Positions 18,911 through 63,356 of a stretch of 64,000 nt of DNA are shown in pieces. Source of the stretch: Treponema sp. TIM-1 (GTDB lineage Bacteria; Spirochaetota; Spirochaetia; Treponematales; Breznakiellaceae); NCBI RefSeq assembly GCF_046533115.1, contig NZ_JAJQRC010000002.1, positions 43,708 to 107,707 on the forward strand. Reading direction: 5' to 3'. A program made the position numbers and the translations under genes. The notes beneath the pieces are model-generated. The model saw nothing but the letters and a program-made list of their open reading frames with translations. It was not told the DNA's origin and made no database searches. How positions within the stretch are numbered: the first letter of the stretch is position 1; every line of letters starts with the position of its first letter.

Positions 18911-19837
18911 TTAATCCACATACTCCAGGGGAAAAACCGACCGATCCCGGGAGAGGACCGTATTGGGAAAAATATCCCGGGCTTCCTGCAGTAGCGTCTT
19001 AAGGTTGTATTCATTGTACCGGGGGCTGTAATGGATCAGGGCGAGCTTTTTTACCCCCGCGGCAGCGGCGATTTGGGCGGCCTGTTCCGCGGTCATGTGT
19101 TTTTTTTCCCGGGCGCTTTCTTCCAGCTCTTTTTCAAACATTCCCTCGCAGACAAAAAAATCCGAACCCGCCACCTCGGCGGCAATCTCAGGAAAAGCCA
19201 GGGTATCGGTCACAAAGGAAAATTTTCTTCCTGAACGGGATTCCCCCAGTACCTGATCAGGGAATACCTCGGAGCCGTCCGCGGCCCGGACAGACTCCCC
19301 GGCCTGAAGCCTGGACCAAAGGGGACCCCGGGGAACCCCCAATGCCATGGCTTTTTCGGGGTGGAATTCCCCGGGGCGGCGGTTTTCTTCAAATACATAA
19401 CCCATACAGGGTTTGGTATGCCTCAAAAGAAAAGCCCGTACCTGAAAGTCCTCCCCGGTATATACTATTCCGGGAGAATTTATTTCCTTAACCACGATTT
19501 CATAGTTGATATACATATCCAGGGTACGGCGATTGGTTTCAATATATTCGGCGATTCCCCGGGGACCGATGATGTATAGGGGATCGTCCCGGTCCACTTG
19601 GGAGGAAAGCATCAGGATTCCCGGAATACCCGTCACATGATCCGCGTGGAGGTGGCTTACAAAGATAACGGAAATTTTCTTCCACCGGAGGTTTAACCGG
19701 CGCAGGGAAACCTGGGTCCCCTCCCCTCCATCAAAGAGGAAAAGCTCCCCTTCCCGCCGGAGTAGGACCGAAGTTAAGTGCCGGTTGGGCAGGGGCATCA
19801 TGCCCCCGCAGCCGAGGATAAAGGCTTCCAGGTTCAT
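18911..19837 (-). CDS. rnz: Ribonuclease Z (MBL fold, short form)
   Basis: HxHxDH motif VSHLHADHVTG. The N-terminus FILGCGGMMPLPNRHLTSVLL is typical of the ElaC family. 308 aa. Confidence 0.75.
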   Translation of the reverse strand: MNLEAFILGCGGMMPLPNRHLTSVLLRREGELFLFDGGEGTQVSLRRLNLRWKKISVIFVSHLHADHVTGIPGILMLSSQVDRDDPLYIIGPRGIAEYIETNRRTLDMYINYEIVVKEINSPGIVYTGEDFQVRAFLLRHTKPCMGYVFEENRRPGEFHPEKAMALGVPRGPLWSRLQAGESVRAADGSEVFPDQVLGESRSGRKFSFVTDTLAFPEIAAEVAGSDFFVCEGMFEKELEESAREKKHMTAEQAAQIAAAAGVKKLALIHYSPRYNEYNLKTLLQEARDIFPNTVLSRDRSVFPLEYVD

Positions 19838-23917: not shown

Positions 23918-24988
23918 CTATTGATTTTGCAGGGAAATTTCCTTGAAAACATCCTGAATTTCAATTACCGCATCGGTAAGGAAGGGATCGAACTGGGTTC
24001 CCCTGCCGTCACTGATTATTTTGATGGCTTCACTATAGGGGAAGGCTGCTTTATACACCCTGGAACAGACCAAAGCGTCATACACATCCACCAGGGAGAC
24101 GATCCGGGCGGAGAGGGGAATATCATACCCCTTAAGTCCCCGGGGATAACCTTTTCCATCAAACCGTTCATGGTGGCAATAACAAATATCCCGGCAATGT
24201 TTTAAATAAGGAGTATCGCTATGGGTCAAAATAGACTCGATAATGTTTTTCCCGATGGTGGTATGGGTTTTCATAATTTCAAATTCTTCCGGATCTAATT
24301 TTCCAGGCTTAAGGAGGATCTTATCGGGGATGCCTATCTTGCCCACATCGTGGAGGGCCACGGATTTGACAATAATATCCGGTTCAAGGCTGCGGAGTTC
24401 ATCCGCATAGGGAGATAATGATCCCATCACATGATCGATAAGGGCCTTTGAAAAAAACTGGGTTCTTTTAACATGGCTTCCGGACTCTAAATTACGGTAT
24501 TCTATGATATTTGCCATGGCCTGGAGCATGTTGTCCAAGGTTGAGGTTATTTCCGCAGCCTTTTCCGCAACCATCTCTTCCAAGCTGTCACTGTAATTCT
24601 TTAATTCAATCTGATTCATTACCCGGAGTTTTACAATTTCAGGCTGGAAGGGCTTAGAAATAAAATCCACCGCCCCGGCGGATAGGGCTTCGCTCTCCGA
24701 ATCCGAGGTGGTGATGAAGATTACTGGAATACGCTTGAGGGAATCATTGGTTTTCATCACATTGAGCATTTCATACCCATTCATCTCGGGCATAAAGACA
24801 TCAAGTAAAATGATTTTAGGTAAAACCTCAGCATGATACAGAATTTCCAGGGCTTCTTTCCCATTTTCCGCGGTAATAATATGATAACTATCCTTGAGGA
24901 TCTCCTCCAGGATGAGGAGATTCATTTCAACATCATCAACTACCAGAACCGTAGGAATTTTAGTACCGATCTTATCCATATTGCTCAA
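23918..24988 (-). CDS. Response regulator with an HD-GYP c-di-GMP phosphodiesterase domain
   Basis: REC domain with VLVVDD and LLDVFMPEMNGYEM. The HD-GYP core has HDVGKI and HHERFDGKGYPRGL. Confidence 0.85.
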   Translation of the reverse strand: MSNMDKIGTKIPTVLVVDDVEMNLLILEEILKDSYHIITAENGKEALEILYHAEVLPKIILLDVFMPEMNGYEMLNVMKTNDSLKRIPVIFITTSDSESEALSAGAVDFISKPFQPEIVKLRVMNQIELKNYSDSLEEMVAEKAAEITSTLDNMLQAMANIIEYRNLESGSHVKRTQFFSKALIDHVMGSLSPYADELRSLEPDIIVKSVALHDVGKIGIPDKILLKPGKLDPEEFEIMKTHTTIGKNIIESILTHSDTPYLKHCRDICYCHHERFDGKGYPRGLKGYDIPLSARIVSLVDVYDALVCSRVYKAAFPYSEAIKIISDGRGTQFDPFLTDAVIEIQDVFKEISLQNQ

Positions 24989-25343
24989 TTACCTTATCAA
25001 CATTTTTTATCGTCTCCTCAAAGCAGGTTTTAAAAGATTCCGGGACGCCGGATTTTACCTCTTTGTTTTTTATCTGGACTTCAAAATCAACAGACTGTTT
25101 GTAGAGCTCTGTTAAAGACAAATTAGCGGCAATCCCCTTAATAGTATGGACTAAGCCCTGGGCTTTTTCATAATCCGCCCCTTCTACCGCGGCGAGAAGG
25201 GCTTCCAGGCTGGGATCCGCCTTAAATTTGTTTAATAATTTTACATAGAGTTTGGTATTTCCCATCACCCGTTTGATGCCTTCCGTTAACTCAATATAAA
25301 CAACATCGTTATCAGCCATGCTCTTCTCCTCCTCGAAAAACAT
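24972..25343 (-). CDS. Hpt phosphotransfer domain protein
   Basis: 123 aa with the HxxKG motif VHTIKGIAANLSL. It overlaps and precedes the response-regulator gene. Confidence 0.6.
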   Translation of the reverse strand: MFFEEEKSMADNDVVYIELTEGIKRVMGNTKLYVKLLNKFKADPSLEALLAAVEGADYEKAQGLVHTIKGIAANLSLTELYKQSVDFEVQIKNKEVKSGVPESFKTCFEETIKNVDKVIEQYG

Positions 25344-25624
25344 TTTTACGATACGTATACTGAAAGTTTACCGGTTTTACACGATAATTGTCCATCCCGA
25401 CTGATAGTATTCTGTCAACATACCCTAAGCAAGGCCACAGAATATGCTCCCTTAATACAAATCAACAAATTCCACCCCCCAAACCTTGAAATTTAAAGAA
25501 ATAATTGAATAAAGTATACACAAAAAAATTCGTTTTAGCAATTAAAATAAGTTGAAATGTCATATTTTGAACCGGTAACGGTATTCCCGAAACTTCAATT
25601 TTGGGGGTGGCTAGGCGGTCCCCG

Positions 25625-26809
25625 TTAAAACCGTAGTCTGACCTTGGCGGTAACCAAACCGTTGGTTCCACTTATTTGTGGACCCAGTTCCCCCCGAAGG
25701 CCGTTTCCGGTAAAGGCATCCCGATCCAAAGGAACCCGACCGGTTAAACTGAGGGTTATCCCTTGAAAAAGGTCATGATCCAGGGTAAGGGATGGAGAAA
25801 AAGATATATCGTCCAGACTGCAAAGGACCGTAAGGTTTATCTGGGTATAATCACTAAAATGATAGAGGAAGGTACCGCAAAGGTAGTTCCGGTTTGAGAA
25901 TCCGGTTTGATTTTCAGTACTTTGCGCGGTGGACGACGCGGCCCCATTGTAAAGGTATTCAGTCAAAACATAGAAATTTCCGTTAAAAAAAGAATAGTCA
26001 AACCCGCTACTTATAGAAAGTCCGTCTATGCCGGTACGGACTTCATGGTTATATCTATAAAGCAGATCGACGATAAAGCCTAATTCCATATCCGCCTTAA
26101 GAGACAAACCGGTACGGTGGATTCCATATTCAGAAGTATCCTGAGGAGATTCAAAGCTATATAAGACCTGGATACTTGCCCGATCCCAATGTTTATCTCC
26201 GGATATTCCCATGAGAAACCCCTTGCCATGGGCGTTAAAAGGATTTTTAGGAGTAGTGGTAAAGGTGAGCAGCTTAATGGTATCTTCAGGGTAGACGGAA
26301 AGGGCTGCCCCCAGTACGGCCCGGGGGCGGGCATCAGGAAAGAGGGGATTTCGGGGATTAAGAAAATCAGACGGACTAAAAACCTGGCCAAATCCAAAAC
26401 CCAGACGCATGAGTCCCGTATCCACATCAAGATATTCGCCTTTTATCCGCATATAGAGCCGTTCTAGTTCCATGGCCGCCGCATAATTATCCCCCGTAAC
26501 AAAAGCGGAGGCAGAGAAGGGGTTTAAAGTTGCACCGGCAAAACCGGCTAGGGCGGAACTACCGGCGGCGGCAATAAGATTGAAAGCCCCATAAAAATCA
26601 GCTCTGTCCCCAATTTTTGTCTGAAACCGCAGATTTGCATACTCTTCCCAGCCGAATAAAAAGGGGGATATGTCCCCGGTACCACCCTGAAAACTCACCT
26701 TACTGTCCAAAAAGCCCGAAAGGGTAAATCCCTCTGCAAGCAGCTCTGTCCCCAAAGAGAGTAGAATCATCCCTAAAAACAAGCCGAAAATCCGGATCTT
26801 TCTTTTCAT
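25625..26809 (-). CDS. Putative outer-membrane beta-barrel protein
   Basis: Signal peptide MKRKIRIFGLFLGMILLSLGTELLA. The sequence has alternating beta-strand character and a C-terminal ...RLRF aromatic residue. It is the last gene of the ABC/LolA-like operon. Confidence 0.5.
   Translation of the reverse strand: MKRKIRIFGLFLGMILLSLGTELLAEGFTLSGFLDSKVSFQGGTGDISPFLFGWEEYANLRFQTKIGDRADFYGAFNLIAAAGSSALAGFAGATLNPFSASAFVTGDNYAAAMELERLYMRIKGEYLDVDTGLMRLGFGFGQVFSPSDFLNPRNPLFPDARPRAVLGAALSVYPEDTIKLLTFTTTPKNPFNAHGKGFLMGISGDKHWDRASIQVLYSFESPQDTSEYGIHRTGLSLKADMELGFIVDLLYRYNHEVRTGIDGLSISSGFDYSFFNGNFYVLTEYLYNGAASSTAQSTENQTGFSNRNYLCGTFLYHFSDYTQINLTVLCSLDDISFSPSLTLDHDLFQGITLSLTGRVPLDRDAFTGNGLRGELGPQISGTNGLVTAKVRLRF
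26599..26611 (-). repeat. GGGGACAGAGCTG repeat copy
   Basis: The plus strand reads CAGCTCTGTCCCC. It lies inside the OMP gene, encoding IGDRAD in frame 0. Confidence 0.7.
26741..26753 (-). repeat. GGGGACAGAGCTG repeat copy
   Basis: It lies inside the same OMP gene but in a different reading frame (LGTEL). Confidence 0.7.
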
Positions 26810-26832: not shown

Positions 26833-27579
26833 TTACCGTTCCAAATTTCTAGTGCTGAAGATCGAATTGGGGATGGGCTGATCCAGAATGATACTTTTCA
26901 GTACCAAGGTCGTTTTGCTGCCCCGGCGTAGGAGATCCCGAATCTCCGTTTCTACCGGGAAACGGCGGCCTTCGATTGTTTCGATCCTTTTCAGGTTGTA
27001 TTCTTTAAGCTTTATCCCGGACAGGGCAAAAAGTTCATAATGGATACAGTCTCCATTCTCTTTATCTATCCAAAGTTTCTGTTTCGGGTAACTTTCGGTC
27101 TTCTTTTTCGCACTTAAATCCAGGACCCAACAATCCCGGTTGTTCCAGATTTCGGACCCCGCAAGAACCGGATTATACCGGGCCGATAGTTTTTCATTCT
27201 CAATGGTATCCTCATAGGAAAGATCCGACCCCATCATACTCTCCTTAAGCATATGTCCCGAAACAAGCATCACCTCCTCGGTATCCGGGGAATACACATA
27301 GAGTCGTCCTCCCCTTTTGAGGTACTTGGTTCCCCGATCCTCAGGATTGGTAAACTCAGTAAAATTGTCGGTATTCTCCCGGGCCCAGGCCTTCATAGTC
27401 TTAACATAGCGCCGATTTTGATACTCAATGATCATCTCCCCTTCGTATTCAATGGTGGTATAAATCTCATTATCATCCACCCGCCGTAATAATTCCGCCG
27501 CAGACGGCGTCTGAGCGGACACAATGGCCGCCGCCATTAAAACAAACAAAACCGCAAATACCCTTACTTTCGTTTTCAT
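26833..27579 (-). CDS. LolA-like outer-membrane lipoprotein-sorting protein (COG2834)
   Basis: Start trimmed to MKTKVRVFAVLFVLMAAAIVSAQ with a GGAGG RBS. The conserved block FTNPEDRGTKYLKRGGRLYVYSPDTEEVMLVSGHMLKESMMGSDLSYED matches the family. Confidence 0.7.
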   Translation of the reverse strand: MKTKVRVFAVLFVLMAAAIVSAQTPSAAELLRRVDDNEIYTTIEYEGEMIIEYQNRRYVKTMKAWARENTDNFTEFTNPEDRGTKYLKRGGRLYVYSPDTEEVMLVSGHMLKESMMGSDLSYEDTIENEKLSARYNPVLAGSEIWNNRDCWVLDLSAKKKTESYPKQKLWIDKENGDCIHYELFALSGIKLKEYNLKRIETIEGRRFPVETEIRDLLRRGSKTTLVLKSIILDQPIPNSIFSTRNLER

Positions 27580-27597
27580 CGTAAACCTCCTAATAGT

Positions 27598-27676
27598 AAC
27601 TACGAACCACACTAACAAACACAAAAAGGAAAACATGCCGAACAAAAAGTTCGTGTTTTTCGTGTGGTTCGTAGTT
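27598..27676. repeat. Intergenic element with a 15-bp perfect inverted repeat (AACTACGAACCACAC / GTGTGGTTCGTAGTT) enclosing three 9-bp-spaced GTTCGTG-like units
   Basis: Units lie at 27649-55 (GTTCGTG), 27658-64 (TTTCGTG) and 27667-73 (GTTCGTA). The element sits between the FtsX permease stop and the LolA-like gene start. Confidence 0.6.
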
Positions 27677-27684
27677 GAAATTCT

Positions 27685-28974
27685 TCATCTCCGCAGCGCT
27701 TCCACCGGTTCCACGAAGGCACTTTTCAGGCTGGGGAACAGGGTGAAGAGGGACGCCACCAGTACGCCCATGAGCCAGCTTTTCAGCAGGTTGACGAAAC
27801 TGAAGGCGAAAAATATCGCGTTGGCCGCGGGCATTTCGGCGAAGGTGCTTTCCCCGGCAAGGGCGGTCCAGCGCAGGGGAAAGAACTGGCCCACGCCGGT
27901 AAAGACGCCCCCCAGGATCACCCCCGCAGTGGCCCCGGCTATAGCGAGGAACAGGGACTCGAAGAAGAAGACCCGGACGATTTCCCCACGGGTCATGCCA
28001 AGGCTCCCCATCATGCCGATTTCTTTGATCCGCTCGTGGATGATCATGGTAATCGTATTGACGATGAGGAGGCAGGCCACGATGAGGAAAACCAGGTAGA
28101 TCAGGAAATACATGGGTTCGTACATATTCATCATCACGATCCAGTACTGATCCCGCCATTCGGTGACCACGTCTTCCGGGCCGAGGATTTTTTCCATCTC
28201 CGCGGCAATGCGCCCGCTCTGTTCCGGGGAGTCCCCGTAGACGATGATCTGCTGGGAAGCGTCGTCCAGCACGAGGAGGCGCTGGAGGCGGCCAAAGTCC
28301 ACGATGATGGTCTCCCCGTCGGCCTTGGCGTAATCGAAGCGGAAGATCCCGCTGACCACCGGGGCCCACATCTTGTCGGAGAACTGGGCCGACACGGTTT
28401 TGAGGGGAATACGGTCGCCTATCCTGAGCCCCGCCTTTTCCGCAAGCCGCAGACCTATGGCGCACTCGTTACTGCCCCGCTCGGGCCAGCGGCCCTCCAC
28501 CAGACCGTCATTCCGGTTCGTCAGGTTGAAGTGATTTACCGCCGTCTCCTCCCCCATGTTCATCCCCCAGAGGGTGGCGTGTTTCACCAGACTTTCCTGC
28601 AACGTGGCGTAGGCGGAGATCCGGGGAAACACCGCCCGCACGCCGGGAATGGCCCGGATCCGTTCCGTCACCGCCGCCAAACTCTGGCCCTCCGCCACGG
28701 GGTACTGGACAGGACTGTACTCGCTTTCCGCCTCGTATTGGGCCGACACCGCCCGGACATGACCCAACTCAAAAACCTGCACCACCTCGTGCATACTCTT
28801 CAACATCCCCTCGATGAGGGACGAATAAAACACGACGAAGAACACCGCTATCCCCACCGCCGCCACGCAGAACATGGTCCGCCTGAGATTGCGAAAAATG
28901 TTCCTGAACGCGATGGTGATAAGGGCCCCCGTTCCCCCCTGCCGATAATTACCGCTCATATAAACCTCCTTCAT
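27685..28974 (-). CDS. ABC transporter permease, FtsX/LolC/MacB-like
   Basis: 429 aa. An N-terminal TM helix, a periplasmic domain and three C-terminal TM helices make up the FtsX fold. Confidence 0.7.
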   Translation of the reverse strand: MKEVYMSGNYRQGGTGALITIAFRNIFRNLRRTMFCVAAVGIAVFFVVFYSSLIEGMLKSMHEVVQVFELGHVRAVSAQYEAESEYSPVQYPVAEGQSLAAVTERIRAIPGVRAVFPRISAYATLQESLVKHATLWGMNMGEETAVNHFNLTNRNDGLVEGRWPERGSNECAIGLRLAEKAGLRIGDRIPLKTVSAQFSDKMWAPVVSGIFRFDYAKADGETIIVDFGRLQRLLVLDDASQQIIVYGDSPEQSGRIAAEMEKILGPEDVVTEWRDQYWIVMMNMYEPMYFLIYLVFLIVACLLIVNTITMIIHERIKEIGMMGSLGMTRGEIVRVFFFESLFLAIAGATAGVILGGVFTGVGQFFPLRWTALAGESTFAEMPAANAIFFAFSFVNLLKSWLMGVLVASLFTLFPSLKSAFVEPVEALRR

Positions 28975-31441: not shown

Positions 31442-32560
31442 TCATTGCTCCCCCTCATTTCTATCTCCTCTCTCCTCCCGCCGTAGTTCCGTCAAAGCCT
31501 CAAGGCCGAAGATGTCCTTTGCCTTGAGTTCCTCGGTAATTGAACTGGGAACCAACATCATGGAATTCCCCGCTTTGAGCCCTTCATTCAAAATCGAAAG
31601 GATCTTGAGCTTCATCGCCGGTTCGGTTTTCGCGTAAATCCGAACCGCCTCTTCCAGCTTTCTGGCAATCTCTATCTCCGCTTCCGCCAGAAGGATCCTC
31701 CCCTTCTTTTCCCGTTCCGCCTGGGCAAGCCTTGAAAGGGAATCCTGGAGATGTTCCGGAATCTGTATATCCGTAATTTCGATATGTTGTACGGTGATTC
31801 CCCATTCGGTGGTTTTTTTATCCACTTCTTCCTGAATCTGCTTTTTAATGATATCCCCTCTTTCCAGGAACGTAGTCAAATCATGGCTGCTCACCGCGTT
31901 TCTCAGGGCTGTCTTTGAGGAGAGGATCACCGCATCCTCGTAGTTCTGAACCTCCAGGACCGCTTTTTCCGGGTCCCAGACCAGCCAGAAACACAGGGCA
32001 TCCACGGTCACCGTCACCGAATCCAGGGTGAGGGTTTCTTGGGCGGAAAAATCAGTCACCCGGATTCTAAGATCCACCCGTTGGGCTATCCTATCCGCAA
32101 TGGGAATAAGTACAAAAAGCCCCGGTCCCCGGATTCGGTAAAACCTACCGAAACGCAGCACAATGGCCCGTTCCCATTCTTCCAGCCGTTGTATTGCCGG
32201 GACAAAAAGCACCGCTAGGGCCATAAAAATGAGGGACAGAGCTAACCGGGGAAAACCTATAATTCCAAAAACACCGACCAGCAGGATGTATATTTTTATC
32301 CCCGCCCCCCATCGAGGGAAGAAAATCAATAATATAAGGGTTACACAGGGCATTCCCAGAAGTATTCCTAATTCCGGTAACGAAGGCGGAGAACCGGTAA
32401 CCAATGAGCCTCCCAGGATAAAAAGCACCCCAATTCCTAAAAAGCCTATTCCCAGCGCGTTCAGGGAGAAATCCCGAAGTTTCTGCCGGGGCTGAATATT
32501 TTTAATAAGCTGTTTAACCGCAGGATTTTTATTTTTCTGGGTAGATCCATTAAACTTCAT
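31442..32560 (-). CDS. SPFH/band-7 (stomatin-like) protein with an N-terminal multi-TM region
   Basis: Start trimmed to MKFNGSTQKN, preceded by a GGAGGAG RBS. The SPFH core is VLRFGRFYRIRGPGLFVLIPIADRIAQRVDLRIRV. Confidence 0.65.
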   Translation of the reverse strand: MKFNGSTQKNKNPAVKQLIKNIQPRQKLRDFSLNALGIGFLGIGVLFILGGSLVTGSPPSLPELGILLGMPCVTLILLIFFPRWGAGIKIYILLVGVFGIIGFPRLALSLIFMALAVLFVPAIQRLEEWERAIVLRFGRFYRIRGPGLFVLIPIADRIAQRVDLRIRVTDFSAQETLTLDSVTVTVDALCFWLVWDPEKAVLEVQNYEDAVILSSKTALRNAVSSHDLTTFLERGDIIKKQIQEEVDKKTTEWGITVQHIEITDIQIPEHLQDSLSRLAQAEREKKGRILLAEAEIEIARKLEEAVRIYAKTEPAMKLKILSILNEGLKAGNSMMLVPSSITEELKAKDIFGLEALTELRREERGDRNEGEQ

Positions 32561-32579
32561 GTTACTCCTCCTATAATTC

Positions 32580-32975
32580 CTAAACAAAATAATTTTCAAT
32601 AAGCTGTTTAAGTTCCTCTTCTCCGACTCCCAAATTCTGCATCTCCTGAACAAACCGGCCGATAACTTCCTGGATCTTTCGATTCCGTTCATCCCGTTCC
32701 TGAATCGGTTTTTTATCGGAAACATAGGTCCCGCTTCCCACCTGGGTAATCAGGATCCCCCGGATCTCCAGTTCCCCATAGGCCTTTGCAATCGTGTTCG
32801 GGTTGATCCGCAATTCTATCGCCAGGGAACGAATGGTAGGTAATTTATCCCCCGGTTTTATCCGCTCCGACAGAATCGCGTATTCTATCTGCTGGATTAT
32901 CTGCCGATACACCGGTACACCCTTATCCGTGTCCAGAGAAAAATATAATTTCCTCTCTGCATTTGTACTATTCAT
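32580..32975 (-). CDS. GntR family transcriptional regulator, short YtrA-like subfamily
   Basis: 131 aa. The winged HTH is PGDKLPTIRSLAIELRINPNTIAKAYGELEIRGIL, followed by a short C-terminal tail. It is the first gene of the operon. Confidence 0.75.
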   Translation of the reverse strand: MNSTNAERKLYFSLDTDKGVPVYRQIIQQIEYAILSERIKPGDKLPTIRSLAIELRINPNTIAKAYGELEIRGILITQVGSGTYVSDKKPIQERDERNRKIQEVIGRFVQEMQNLGVGEEELKQLIENYFV

Positions 32976-33051
32976 CTAGTACAATCGTAAATGAACTAGT
33001 ACAATATGTCAATTACTTTTTTTATTTTTTATGCTATTTAGGGACAATTTA

Positions 33052-33063
33052 GGGGACAGAGCT
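33052..33063 (+). repeat. GGGGACAGAGCT repeat copy flanking the transposase (upstream side)
   Basis: Intergenic, about 90 bp upstream of the Y1 transposase ATG. It is preceded by a partial duplicate GGGACA. Confidence 0.75.
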
Positions 33064-33153
33064 TATTAGCTGGAAAAGAAGTCTAAAGTCCGCTTTTTTA
33101 AAAATTTACGATTTCCCGAAGCAATATGAATATGAGATCCATAATAAAGAGTT

Positions 33154-33654
33154 ATGAGACATCCAAGAAAACTTAAGGATAACGCCACTTATCATGTGAC
33201 GGTCCGGGCAAACCGGAGGGAGATGGTTCTTTTTTGTACGGCTATGCGGATTTTGTTCCTCAATGTGGTAAAACGGGCAAAAAAGAAATATAAATTCCAA
33301 ATAGACAATTTTTCTATCATGGGAAATCATGTTCACCTTATTATTCGGCCGGGAAAGGATGAATCCTTATCCCGTATCATGCAATGGATATTAAGTGTCT
33401 TTGCTATGGCATGGAACCGAGCCCACTTTCAGACCGGTCATGTATGGGGAGAACGATTTTTTTCCAAGATCATCAATGATTGTATCGAATTTATCAAAAC
33501 ATTTCATTACATTTCGCAAAATCCGGTAAAGGCCCAATTAGTCAAAAGTCCTGAAGAATGGGAATTTGGAGGACTCTGGCATTTTATTTCAGGGAAAAAA
33601 GAAATAATTGGGGAACCCGCATCATGGATCCAAGAGATATATCGGAATTATTGA
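33154..33654 (+). mobile_element. IS200-like Y1 (HuH) tyrosine transposase, probably a REP-associated RAYT
   Basis: 166 aa with the HuH motif GNHVHLIIRP. The downstream HFQTGHVWGERFF block fits the IS200/RAYT family. The gene is low in GC and is flanked by inverted copies of GGGGACAGAGCT at 33052 and 33681. Confidence 0.6.
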
Positions 33655-33680
33655 GAATATTCTATCCCTGGGATCGTAAA

Positions 33681-33692
33681 CAGCTCTGTCCC
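33681..33692 (-). repeat. GGGACAGAGCTG repeat copy flanking the transposase (downstream side, inverted)
   Basis: 11/12 match, 27 bp after the transposase stop. Confidence 0.65.
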
Positions 33693-33700
33693 TCTAGATA

Positions 33701-35062
33701 CTAATTTTTGAAGCTATGGAGAGGGGCAGGTATCCTGCCGCCCCGGGCGATAAAGGAGTCGCTTTTCGCCCTGTTTACCGCCATAATGGGAGTACCCCCT
33801 AAAAGGCCGCCGAATTCCGCCCATTCCCCGGCTTTTTTACCCGGCACCGGAATGACCCGTACCGCGGTGGTCTTATTGTTCACCATCCCGATGGCCATTT
33901 CATCGGCAATGATCGCCGAAATCGTTGCGGTGGAGGTATCCCCCGGAAGGGCAATCATATCCAGTCCCACCGAGCAGACCGAGGTCATAGCTTCTAATTT
34001 ATCCATGCTTATAGAACCGGCTCTCACCGCCGCGACCATACCTTCATCCTCCGAAACCGGTATGAACGCCCCGGAAAATCCTCCCACATGGGTCGAGGCC
34101 ATAACCCCCCCCTTTTTTACCATATCCGTCAGCATGGCCAGGGCCGCGGTAGTTCCGTGGGTTCCCGCCGACTCAAGGCCCATCTCTTCCAGGATCCGGG
34201 CTACCGAATCCCCTACCGCGGGGGTAGGGGCCAGGGAAAGATCCAATATTCCGAAGGGAACCCCTAACCGTTTGGCCGCTTCCATCCCTACCAGTTGACC
34301 CATACGGGTAATCTTGAAGGCCGTTTTTTTGATAATATCCGCCAGTTCATCAAAATTTGCGTCCCGATGCCTTTCCAGGGCGGCCTTCACCACCCCGGGA
34401 CCGGAAACACCCACATTAAGGCATGCCTCCCCTTCCCCGACCCCATGAAAGGCCCCGGCCATAAAGGGATTATCCTCCGGCGCGTTACAGAAAACCACTA
34501 ACTTCGCACAGGCGATCCCATCCGTGCCGGCGGTTTTTTCCGCGGCGGCCTTGATCACCTCTCCCATGCGGCGGACCGCGTCCATGTTGATACCGCTTTT
34601 CGTACTAGCCACATTTACCGACGCGCAAACCCGTTCCGTAAGGGACAGAGCTTCAGGAATCGAATCAATAAGCCGTCTGTCCCCCTGGCAAAAGCCCTTT
34701 TGTACTAGGGCAGAGAACCCCCCGACAAAGTCAATACCCAGTTCCTTGGCGACCTCATCCAGGACCACCGCATAGGGGGTATAATCTTCGTCCCCGGAAG
34801 AACCGGCAATAAGGGCCATGGGGGTAACCGAAAGACGCTTATTGATAATGGGGATACCGTATTCGACCTCTATCTGCCGGCCCGTCTGAACCAGGGATCC
34901 CGCCGTCTTAAGGAGTTTTTCCCGGATTCTCCTCCGGGTCTCCCCGCCGGACGCGGAAGCGCAATCCAGTAGGGATACCCCCAGGGTAATGGCCCGGATA
35001 TCCAGTTTGTACCGCAGGAACATATCCACGGTCTCTTTTATTTCAAATGGGGTAAATAACAT
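33701..35062 (-). CDS. UPF0210 (DUF711, PFL-like) family protein
   Basis: The N-terminus [34 protein letters not shown] is the hallmark start of UPF0210. 453 aa. Paired with the upstream ACT protein. Confidence 0.7.
34642..34652 (+). repeat. GGGACAGAGCT(T) repeat copy
   Basis: 11-mer core inside the UPF0210 gene, encoding ...EALSL... on the opposite strand. Confidence 0.55.
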
Positions 35063-63146: not shown

Positions 63147-63255
63147 ATAAAATACCTCTATGCATATAATAACATCTTTTCGTATGTATTGTCCAATGAT
63201 TTTTTACATAAACCGCGATGAAATTTAACCATATAACCATATTATCGAAGCAAAA

Positions 63256-63280
63256 GTTCGTGATGTTCGTGTCGTTCGTG
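63256..63280. repeat. Three exact direct repeats of GTTCGTG at 9-bp spacing. Related to the 27649 element.
   Basis: GTTCGTGatGTTCGTGtcGTTCGTGgtt. The flanks AAAAGTTCGTG and GTTaa..ATTCTTC are also shared with the 27640-27690 copy. It sits in the divergent region between vapB and the cysteine desulfurase gene. Confidence 0.6.
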
Positions 63281-63356
63281 GTTAATCCTATTCTTCCTGC
63301 GTAACATGGGCTGATAATCTTTACAAGGCCCGGCTTTTTTTTTATGATCCTACCCT

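Follow-up and report, generated by a model that had tools for sequence, protein, structure and literature searches.

Repetitive extragenic palindromes (REP), their inverted doublets (REPIN) and the associated transposases (RAYT), together with the intervening sequences (IVS) of 23S rRNA genes, are the described systems closest to the element reported here. This element is a triple repeat of 7-mers of xTTCGTG type in 9-bp phase. It occurs at two sites, at 27.6 kb and at 63.2 kb, in a stretch of 64,000 nucleotides of Treponema sp. TIM-1 (contig NZ_JAJQRC010000002.1, positions 43,708 to 107,707, forward strand), the whole of which is called the window below. In REP/REPIN-RAYT systems, one small gene is flanked by its own repeats and most copies are gene-less, as here (PMC3116915, PMC3733652). 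Also similar are the short extragenic palindromes in many copies, the inverted doublets that form a larger hairpin, and the absence of target-site duplication. The present element differs in its three phased 9-nt units, in the terminal GTGG paired at the outer end, and in its gene, which codes for a PD-(D/E)XK nuclease and not for a Y1 (HUH) transposase. Furthermore, REP sequences are usually lineage-specific, whereas one unit type (TTCGTG) is common to many phyla here. The IVS are likewise selfish, with a terminal-inverted-repeat stem enclosing a small open reading frame (ORF), as in full-length relatives of the present element; the copies in the window have no ORF. In the IVS, three heptamers GACAGAT stand in tandem in the stem region before the S23p ORF, which is often decaying (PMC4990558). 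However, the IVS are located in helices 25 and 45 of 23S rRNA, are excised by RNase III, and their ORF codes for the S23p four-helix-bundle protein, while the elements described here are intergenic between protein-coding genes, have 9-nt units, and go with a GxxExxY PD-(D/E)XK nuclease. Miniature inverted-repeat transposable elements (MITEs) of bacteria, such as Correia/NEMIS, RUP, and Nezha, are also small, non-coding, intergenic inverted repeats co-transcribed with their neighbours, but they have target-site duplications and an origin from DDE insertion sequences, neither of which was seen here. Operators of ribbon-helix-helix proteins (MetJ metboxes, omega heptads) resemble the arms in having short boxes with a phase of 7-9 bp, in direct or inverted arrays, bound by co-operative multimers, and the 7-mers may be read in a similar way. 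Such operators are at the promoters of specific regulons, whereas the arms are spread over gene boundaries throughout the genome and in many phyla. Most probably (about 0.75), both sites in the window are non-autonomous copies of one dispersed, selfish, hairpin-forming repeat, the full-length relatives of which carry the nuclease gene.

On the plus strand, positions 27649-27673 read GTTCGTG TT TTTCGTG TG GTTCGTA, and positions 63256-63280 read GTTCGTG AT GTTCGTG TC GTTCGTG. When no more than three mismatches were allowed, the phased triple was present at these two places only in the 64-kb window, and a looser phased scan of the window gave no site beyond these copies. The triple pattern was found in none of 100 dinucleotide-preserving shuffles of the window. 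The three 7-mers at 9-bp phase, pointed out at both loci in an earlier note made from the sequence alone, are confirmed as real by these analyses. The common flanks reported there (AAAAG before and GTT.AA..ATTCTTC after the repeat) are present as well and proved to be conserved parts of the repeat family and no coincidence. The gene contexts were also correctly given, with permease and LolA-like genes at one copy and VapB/PIN genes facing a class-V aminotransferase gene at the other. The same note placed the 27.6 kb copy inside a 15-bp inverted repeat with arms at 27598-27612 and 27662-27676. This inverted repeat is perfect, and it extends to 21 nt with 90% complementarity, but the triple repeat is not nested in a separate structure, because units 2-3 of the triple serve as the right arm, and the left arm belongs to an inverted, partly degenerate copy of the triple. 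The whole of the 27.6 kb locus forms a palindrome, with three units on either side of a loop of 22 nt.

The pattern TTCGTG N3 TTCGTG N3 TTCGTR was sought in one genome for each species of bacteria and archaea. At least 120 loci were found, with about 35 matches estimated by chance. The matches listed come from Methylococcales, Verrucomicrobia, Acidobacteria, Planctomycetes, Desulfobacterota, Bacteroidota, Chloroflexi (including the complete genome of Herpetosiphon aurantiacus), Lentisphaerae, Gemmatimonadota, Spirochaetaceae, and others; a few matches in GC-rich Actinobacteria are coding tandem repeats unrelated to the family. A stricter pattern of GTTCGTG type, with 25 specified positions, had at least 120 matches in metagenomes, and the general pattern had at least 120 in IMG/VR, where up to 8 arms were found in 14 kb. 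Conservation includes bases outside the search pattern, as G follows unit 3 in 139 of the 151 arms listed, and then T and an A-rich run. Both copies in the window have the same arm structure, that is, three 9-nt units, a GTGGT(T) or GTAGTT end, and an A-rich/TTCTT outer flank. Both sites belong, as homologous copies, to one family of dispersed palindromic repeats, which spans very many bacterial phyla.

The complete unit is about 80 bp long and consists of two inverted 27-nt arms, each of 3 x (7-mer xTTCGTG + 2 variable bases), and a short loop. Outward, each arm ends in GTGGT(T), next to which is the A-rich/TTCTT flank. With a threshold of at least 14 of 18 core bases, an inverted partner was recognized on the unit-1 (inner) side of 81 of the 154 arms listed, with loops of 11-390 nt (mostly 11-130 nt), and beyond the GG (outer) end of only 9 of them. 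This makes CCACGAAx... - loop - ...xTTCGTGG the canonical element, whose GG ends point outward. The inner partner that makes the hairpin is present at 27.6 kb and absent at 63.2 kb, where the arm is solo. When partner arms are compared, 87-98% of the core positions of the 7-mers are complementary, against only 38-58% of the two variable positions; the motif is kept, and not merely the stem. The opposite pairing, with GG(ATC) ends facing each other across about 33 nt, was observed in L026 (2342-2422 and 3444-3521), L008, and L066. These inward-facing pairs are from Pyrinomonadaceae and an Akkermansia metagenome-assembled genome, and the majority of pairs face outward. Copies with variant units (CGCGAAG, CACGGAA) and nested copies occur in L065 and L074. 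In L065 (1909-2064), a hairpin of CACGGAA units is nested in the loop of a hairpin of CACGAA units, and in L092 (1692-1811) a solo arm stands beside a complete hairpin with GTAGGC ends.

Most arms are intergenic, with the GG end at a typical distance of 5-35 nt from stop codons or of 6-60 nt from start codons. The arms abut stop or start codons on either strand, and there is room on their inner side. Such positions would be given by an element that fills short spacers. The arms of L026 separate housekeeping genes (ferritin, rhomboid, fatty-acid oxidation, ribH, nusB, and cheA). No recurrent neighbour gene was revealed when 546 neighbouring ORFs were compared all against all in BLAST, the largest family being present at 5 of the approximately 120 loci listed, and no recurrent transposase was found among these ORFs. 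Target-site duplications were sought in 107 complete pairs at offsets of 0-5 and lengths of 2-9, without excess over shuffled partners. In Rfam, no family reached the gathering threshold in the window or in 18 related loci, and permissive scans gave only generic hairpin (microRNA) noise. A coding role of the arms (FVx or HEx peptides) as the primary constraint was rejected, since conservation includes the wobble positions and neither the frame nor the start is consistent. An integron attC or cassette origin, suggested by arms between every gene of L026, was also rejected. The neighbours are housekeeping or operon genes and form no cassette arrays, and the outer AAC...GTT is present in only some copies, in contrast to the R''/R' core sites (RYYYAAC ... 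GTTRRRY) of attC. By informal comparison, we know of no DnaA box, LexA/Cheo box, LytTR/AlgR 9-mer, parS, Chi, uptake sequence, or promoter of extracytoplasmic function sigma factors that fits the unit or explains its scatter.

Genes were sought between arms 0.25-3.5 kb apart in the loci selected by motif. In L116, L165, and L204, the loop of about 390 bp between the arms holds an ORF of 122-126 aa, recognized as PF13366 PDDEXK_3 (E about 1e-40) and TIGR04256 'GxxExxY protein'. In the motif-selected loci there are eight GxxExxY ORFs, and each of them has arms no more than about 50 bp away. Apart from these, the small ORFs with flanking arms are a heterogeneous set, mostly from genomes whose arms fill many spacers. 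In the reciprocal test, loci were fetched by protein similarity alone, which gave nine distinct cassettes (L364/L385, L365/L379, L366, the group L367-L376, L377/L378, L380, L381/L382, L383, and L384), and all nine are flanked by inverted arms of three 9-nt units. The units vary between cassettes (TTCGTG, TTCGCG, TTCTGTG, TTCTGCG, TTCTGTT, GTTCATC, TTCATTT, and TTCCGTT). With Larm and Rarm for the left and right arm, two layouts were distinguished, Larm-ORF-Rarm and Larm-loop-Rarm-ORF-Rarm. Full-length members of the family carry a gene of a GxxExxY PD-(D/E)XK nuclease of about 125 aa, either between the arms or between two hairpins. The cassettes L367-L384, in which nucleases 70-76% identical go with completely different units, are on Bacteroidales-like or viral contigs, seemingly at the same locus, after a gene ending in ...DINI* and before a lipoprotein gene. 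A frameshifted GxxExxY pseudogene between intact arms was identified in L366 (1334-1870) and L343, with the left arm and the ORF start duplicated in tandem; the gene therefore decays while the arms persist.

The arm can also be recognized in the annotated proteins. Among the best 120 homologues of the L165 protein (Caulobacteraceae), 74 could be read into upstream DNA far enough for the N-terminus to be surveyed, and 64 of these 74 have an HExHE motif, typically M[DN]HEPHEPHE. This N-terminus is the in-frame translation of the arm CACGAAC-CN-CACGAAC and supports the link of arm and gene independently; gene callers often translate the arm. About half of the Caulobacteraceae GxxExxY proteins P0241-P0360 are annotated with an 11-aa extension M[DN]HEPHEPHE[RQ], which means either that start codons are over-called systematically or that the arm is genuinely translated. 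The protein family is very large, as each of two protein searches scored thousands of homologues, and no relative of the GxxExxY protein was found in PDB by sequence. Database curators note GxxExxY genes and four-helix-bundle genes in similar, IVS-like contexts. No description of GxxExxY genes with 3x9-nt hairpins, or of this repeat family, was found in the literature, and when sequence strings were searched for in papers, only primers or unrelated uses came up; the association is regarded as novel with caution. A survey of PD-(D/E)XK proteins lists the function of PF13366 as unknown and notes that the family was transferred horizontally multiple times.

At 27.6 kb, the hairpin is complete, about 80 bp long, and without a gene. 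It aligns end to end with hairpins of about 80 bp from metagenomes (L124, L142, L132, L159, L137, L207, and others), which are presumably of termite-gut origin, and the alignment takes in the outer AAGAATTT / AAATTCTT extension. This extension belongs to the family, hence the ATTCTTC flank seen in the earlier note. The flank GAAATTCTTC is also a family feature, and it mirrors AAGAATTT at the opposite end of complete copies. The left arm aligns with the left arms of the metagenome hairpins and with the degenerate arm of hairpin 1 of L181. The intact arm is identical at 27 of 28 positions, variable positions included, to L181 2204-2231, and the hairpin with this arm directly abuts a GxxExxY gene. 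As the degenerate arm is likewise common to the L181 hairpin, the asymmetry of the arms was inherited and is not due to local decay.

The operon around this copy is coded on the minus strand in the order SPFH - ATP-binding cassette (ABC) ATPase - permease - permease - LolA-like, and the element fills the last spacer, within which no promoter-like site was found at the copy. The LolA-like protein is 100% identical to the TIM-1 entry at NCBI. The AGGAGG ribosome-binding site of the LolA-like gene (27587-27592) is about 5 nt from the end of the element opposite to the permease. The same spacer was compared in relatives with LolA-like proteins 81-91% identical (L001, L002, L003, L386, L387, and L388). 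Two relatives have no insert, the spacer being 22 bp long in L001 and 4 bp in L003. The other four have other inserts, in spacers of 68 bp (L386), 134 bp (L002), 144 bp (L387), and 211 bp (L388). Unrelated heptamer-type hairpins are present in L386, L002, and L387 (degenerate in L386, of GTGAGGA type in L002 and L387), and the hairpin of L388 is of 3x9 organization, type CCACAAAGG/CGCCGAAGG/CGAAGAAGG...GCGCCTTTGTGGTT. Given the short spacers of L001 and L003, the 27.6 kb copy is read as an insertion, probably specific to the lineage of TIM-1, and from this comparison the spacer just past the permease stop codon looks like a hot spot of independent insertions. Folding of the transcript, proposed in the earlier note, predicts a stable hairpin on the mRNA strand (-35.8 kcal/mol, z -4.7), and the other strand is predicted to fold similarly (-34.2 kcal/mol, z -6.0). 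In the predicted base helix, GAAUUUC, 2 nt past the permease stop, would pair with GAGGUUU in the ribosome-binding-site region of the LolA-like gene, including a part of AGGAGG.

The 63.2 kb copy is a half element, in which the right arm and some of the loop are retained and the left side has decayed. No significant fold was obtained with its right arm (z 0.21), and no inverted partner of this arm is recognizable, as the best score is at background level. The copy lies between vapB, behind which is vapC coding for a PIN-domain protein, and a class-V aminotransferase gene. A promoter-like site is present on each side, TGGACA-18-TATTAT on the minus strand (63195 to 63166) and TTTACA-17-TATGAT on the plus strand (63320-63348), and the repeat overlaps neither of them. 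A tandem 8-bp direct repeat, TAACCATA TAACCATA, was noticed at 63226-63241, about 30 bp upstream of the -35-like hexamer of vapB; it could be a VapB operator or a piece of the decayed left arm of the element. The -10-like hexamer TATGAT of the aminotransferase gene ends 8 nt before the ATG (63357), and no ribosome-binding site is visible; the mRNA of this gene may be leaderless. It is preceded by a T9 run (63336-63344). Coordinates of both copies and of the genes next to the 27.6 kb copy are given in Table 1.

Table 1. Features of the two repeat copies and the genes adjoining the 27.6 kb copy, in positions of the window.
Feature	Position	Strand	Description
Left arm, 27.6 kb hairpin	27598..27626		Inverted, partly degenerate triple: AAC TACGAAC CA CACTAAC AA ACACAAA
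Loop, 27.6 kb hairpin	27627..27648		22 nt; arm-adjacent AAAAA run common to family members
Right arm, 27.6 kb hairpin	27649..27676	+	GTTCGTGTT TTTCGTGTG GTTCGTAGTT; three 9-nt units and terminal GTT
Outer conserved flank, 27.6 kb copy	27677..27686	+	GAAATTCTTC; reaches into the permease stop codon
FtsX/MacB-type permease gene	27685..28974	-	Stop codon 27685-27687 touches the outer flank of the element
LolA-like / TP_0789-like gene	26833..27579	-	Start at 27579
Right arm, 63.2 kb copy	63256..63283	+	GTTCGTGAT GTTCGTGTC GTTCGTGGTT; exact match to the family consensus
Outer conserved flank, 63.2 kb copy	63284..63297	+	AATCCTATTCTTCC
Loop-proximal segment, 63.2 kb copy	63243..63255	+	TATCGAAGCAAAA; like the ..GAAGTAAAA / ..GGAGTAAAA loop ends of complete members
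Possible decayed left arm, 63.2 kb copy	63200..63232		TTTTTTACATAAACCGCGATGAAATTTAACCAT; low confidence, placed under family left arms by MAFFT

The earlier note offered two explanations of the repeat, a binding site of a multimeric regulator shared by the two loci and a small mobile or regulatory element. As an operator or iteron array, the repeat would be bound by a multimeric transcription factor with joint control of the ABC/LolA operon and of the divergently transcribed vapB/aminotransferase pair. Conserved 7-mers with free 2-nt spacers in direct repeat do look like protein-binding sites, and divergent promoter-like sites stand on both sides of the 63.2 kb copy. However, this copy covers neither a -35 nor a -10 hexamer, the 27.6 kb copy is in an operon spacer without any promoter-like site, the equivalent spacer of relatives lacks the element, and in many phyla the arm stands beside unrelated genes, housekeeping genes included, with no recurrent neighbour and no coherent regulon. 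A regulator common to the two loci is very improbable on these grounds, and the small mobile element is the proposal that fits: the copies in the window would be related by descent from a selfish repeat. Phased binding of a protein to the 7-mers is plausible as a part of the biology of the element itself. An RNA element beneficial to the host, with the 27.6 kb hairpin as an RNase III site, a barrier to 3'-exonucleases, or a device for translational coupling of the LolA-like gene, is somewhat less improbable, yet still unlikely as the explanation of the repeat, and such a role can coexist with a selfish origin. It is favoured by the predicted stability of the hairpin on the mRNA strand, by the base helix, which is predicted to pair with the LolA-like ribosome-binding site, and by the excision by RNase III of 23S rRNA intervening sequences with a similar layout (PMC4990558). 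Against it, the 63.2 kb copy does not fold, relatives have spacers of 4 and 22 bp without an insert or have unrelated hairpins, and the variable positions pair worse than the 7-mers, which is not expected from selection on the stem only.

A REP/REPIN-type element mobilised by a RAYT, an IS200-like Y1 transposase, would agree with short extragenic palindromes in many copies and inverted doublets, with their position between co-directional or convergent genes without target-site duplication, and with the GTGG/GTAG tetranucleotide at the end. But this tetranucleotide is paired at the outer 3' end of the arm and is not an unpaired 5' head, and the arms are 27 nt long and built of 3x9 units, in comparison with stems of 5-13 bp in the surveyed REP families (PMC3733652). 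Also, the gene between the arms is PF13366/TIGR04256 and not a Y1 transposase, and no recurrent transposase was found among the neighbouring ORFs, so that membership in this class is highly improbable. A classical MITE, derived from an insertion sequence with a DDE transposase, has the lowest probability, even though the element is small, is present in many copies, and has terminal inverted repeats built from repeated subterminal units. The 107 complete pairs gave no target-site duplication at any offset or length, and no transposase gene was found between arms 0.25-3.5 kb apart. The earlier note expected that many scattered copies with terminal inverted repeats would indicate a MITE and not a regulatory site. 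Many such copies were indeed found, but a MITE in the classical sense is not supported by them, as target-site duplication is missing and the gene codes for a nuclease and not a transposase.

For the preferred reading, a dispersed selfish repeat with a nuclease gene in its full-length members, a mechanism can be proposed. The nuclease, or a host or other factor, may recognize the phased 7-mers or the hairpin or cruciform, and this recognition would drive the spread by homing or by excision and reinsertion. Gene-less hairpins may arise by deletion between duplicated right arms, a route offered by the layout Larm-loop-Rarm-ORF-Rarm, or by mobilisation in trans. Once transcribed, the 27.6 kb hairpin may be an incidental element of RNA processing or stability, and pairing of its base with the ribosome-binding site may couple translation of the LolA-like gene to termination at the permease gene.

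Several points weigh against this reading or limit it. The elements appear to be selfish or mobile, a view derived from their presence and absence, the number of copies, and the nesting of one copy in another (L065). As loci were retrieved by an exact pattern, the core appears more conserved than it is, and the core complementarity of the query arm is likewise inflated. No GxxExxY gene is present in the 64-kb window, and a source of mobilisation in trans in TIM-1 is hypothetical. Some copies may have a host function, such as processing or stabilisation of mRNA. Nucleases 70-76% identical carry completely different unit sequences, which argues against a simple sequence-specific recognition of the 7-mer by the nuclease. 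The six units nevertheless agree within one cassette, and this pattern suggests either concerted evolution of the units or modular exchange of gene and arms or replacement of the cassette. A wider proposal is tentative and should be taken as doubtful at present: the 3x9-nt hairpins and the GxxExxY nuclease might form an undescribed pan-bacterial class of selfish elements, in which the nuclease reads a periodic hairpin or cruciform and no fixed sequence, and inserts copies of itself or of gene-less derivatives into spacers beside stop codons, a templated concerted process keeps the six units of a cassette alike, and the TIM-1 sites are non-autonomous members.

A few other features of the window were recorded. 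A 92-nt tRNA-Ile (GAT) was predicted by ARAGORN on the minus strand at 19676-19767, within a long ORF (18911-19837). Rfam at the gathering score gave no tRNA at this position, and the prediction is probably a false positive. The G+C content has dips to 0.43-0.45 at 24001-26000 and 32001-34000, with an average of about 0.52 and values of 0.58-0.60 in the ABC operon. An ORF of 394 aa at 25625-26809 has no Pfam match and is conserved downstream of the LolA-like gene in relatives.

For Treponema sp. TIM-1, the result removes a tempting wrong inference, that of a regulator shared by two operons of the window, and it flags a co-transcribed hairpin in the ABC/LolA-like operon, with possible effects on mRNA processing or on translational coupling. 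The copies in the window are themselves ordinary repeat relics, and the interest is in the family and its link to uncharacterised nucleases. The repeat crosses phyla, is present also on viral contigs, and is ignored or mistranslated by annotation, as in the HEPHEPHE N-terminus. A very large family of unknown function, GxxExxY/PDDEXK_3, is tied by it to a DNA partner of simple periodic architecture, and this link makes the function of the protein directly testable.

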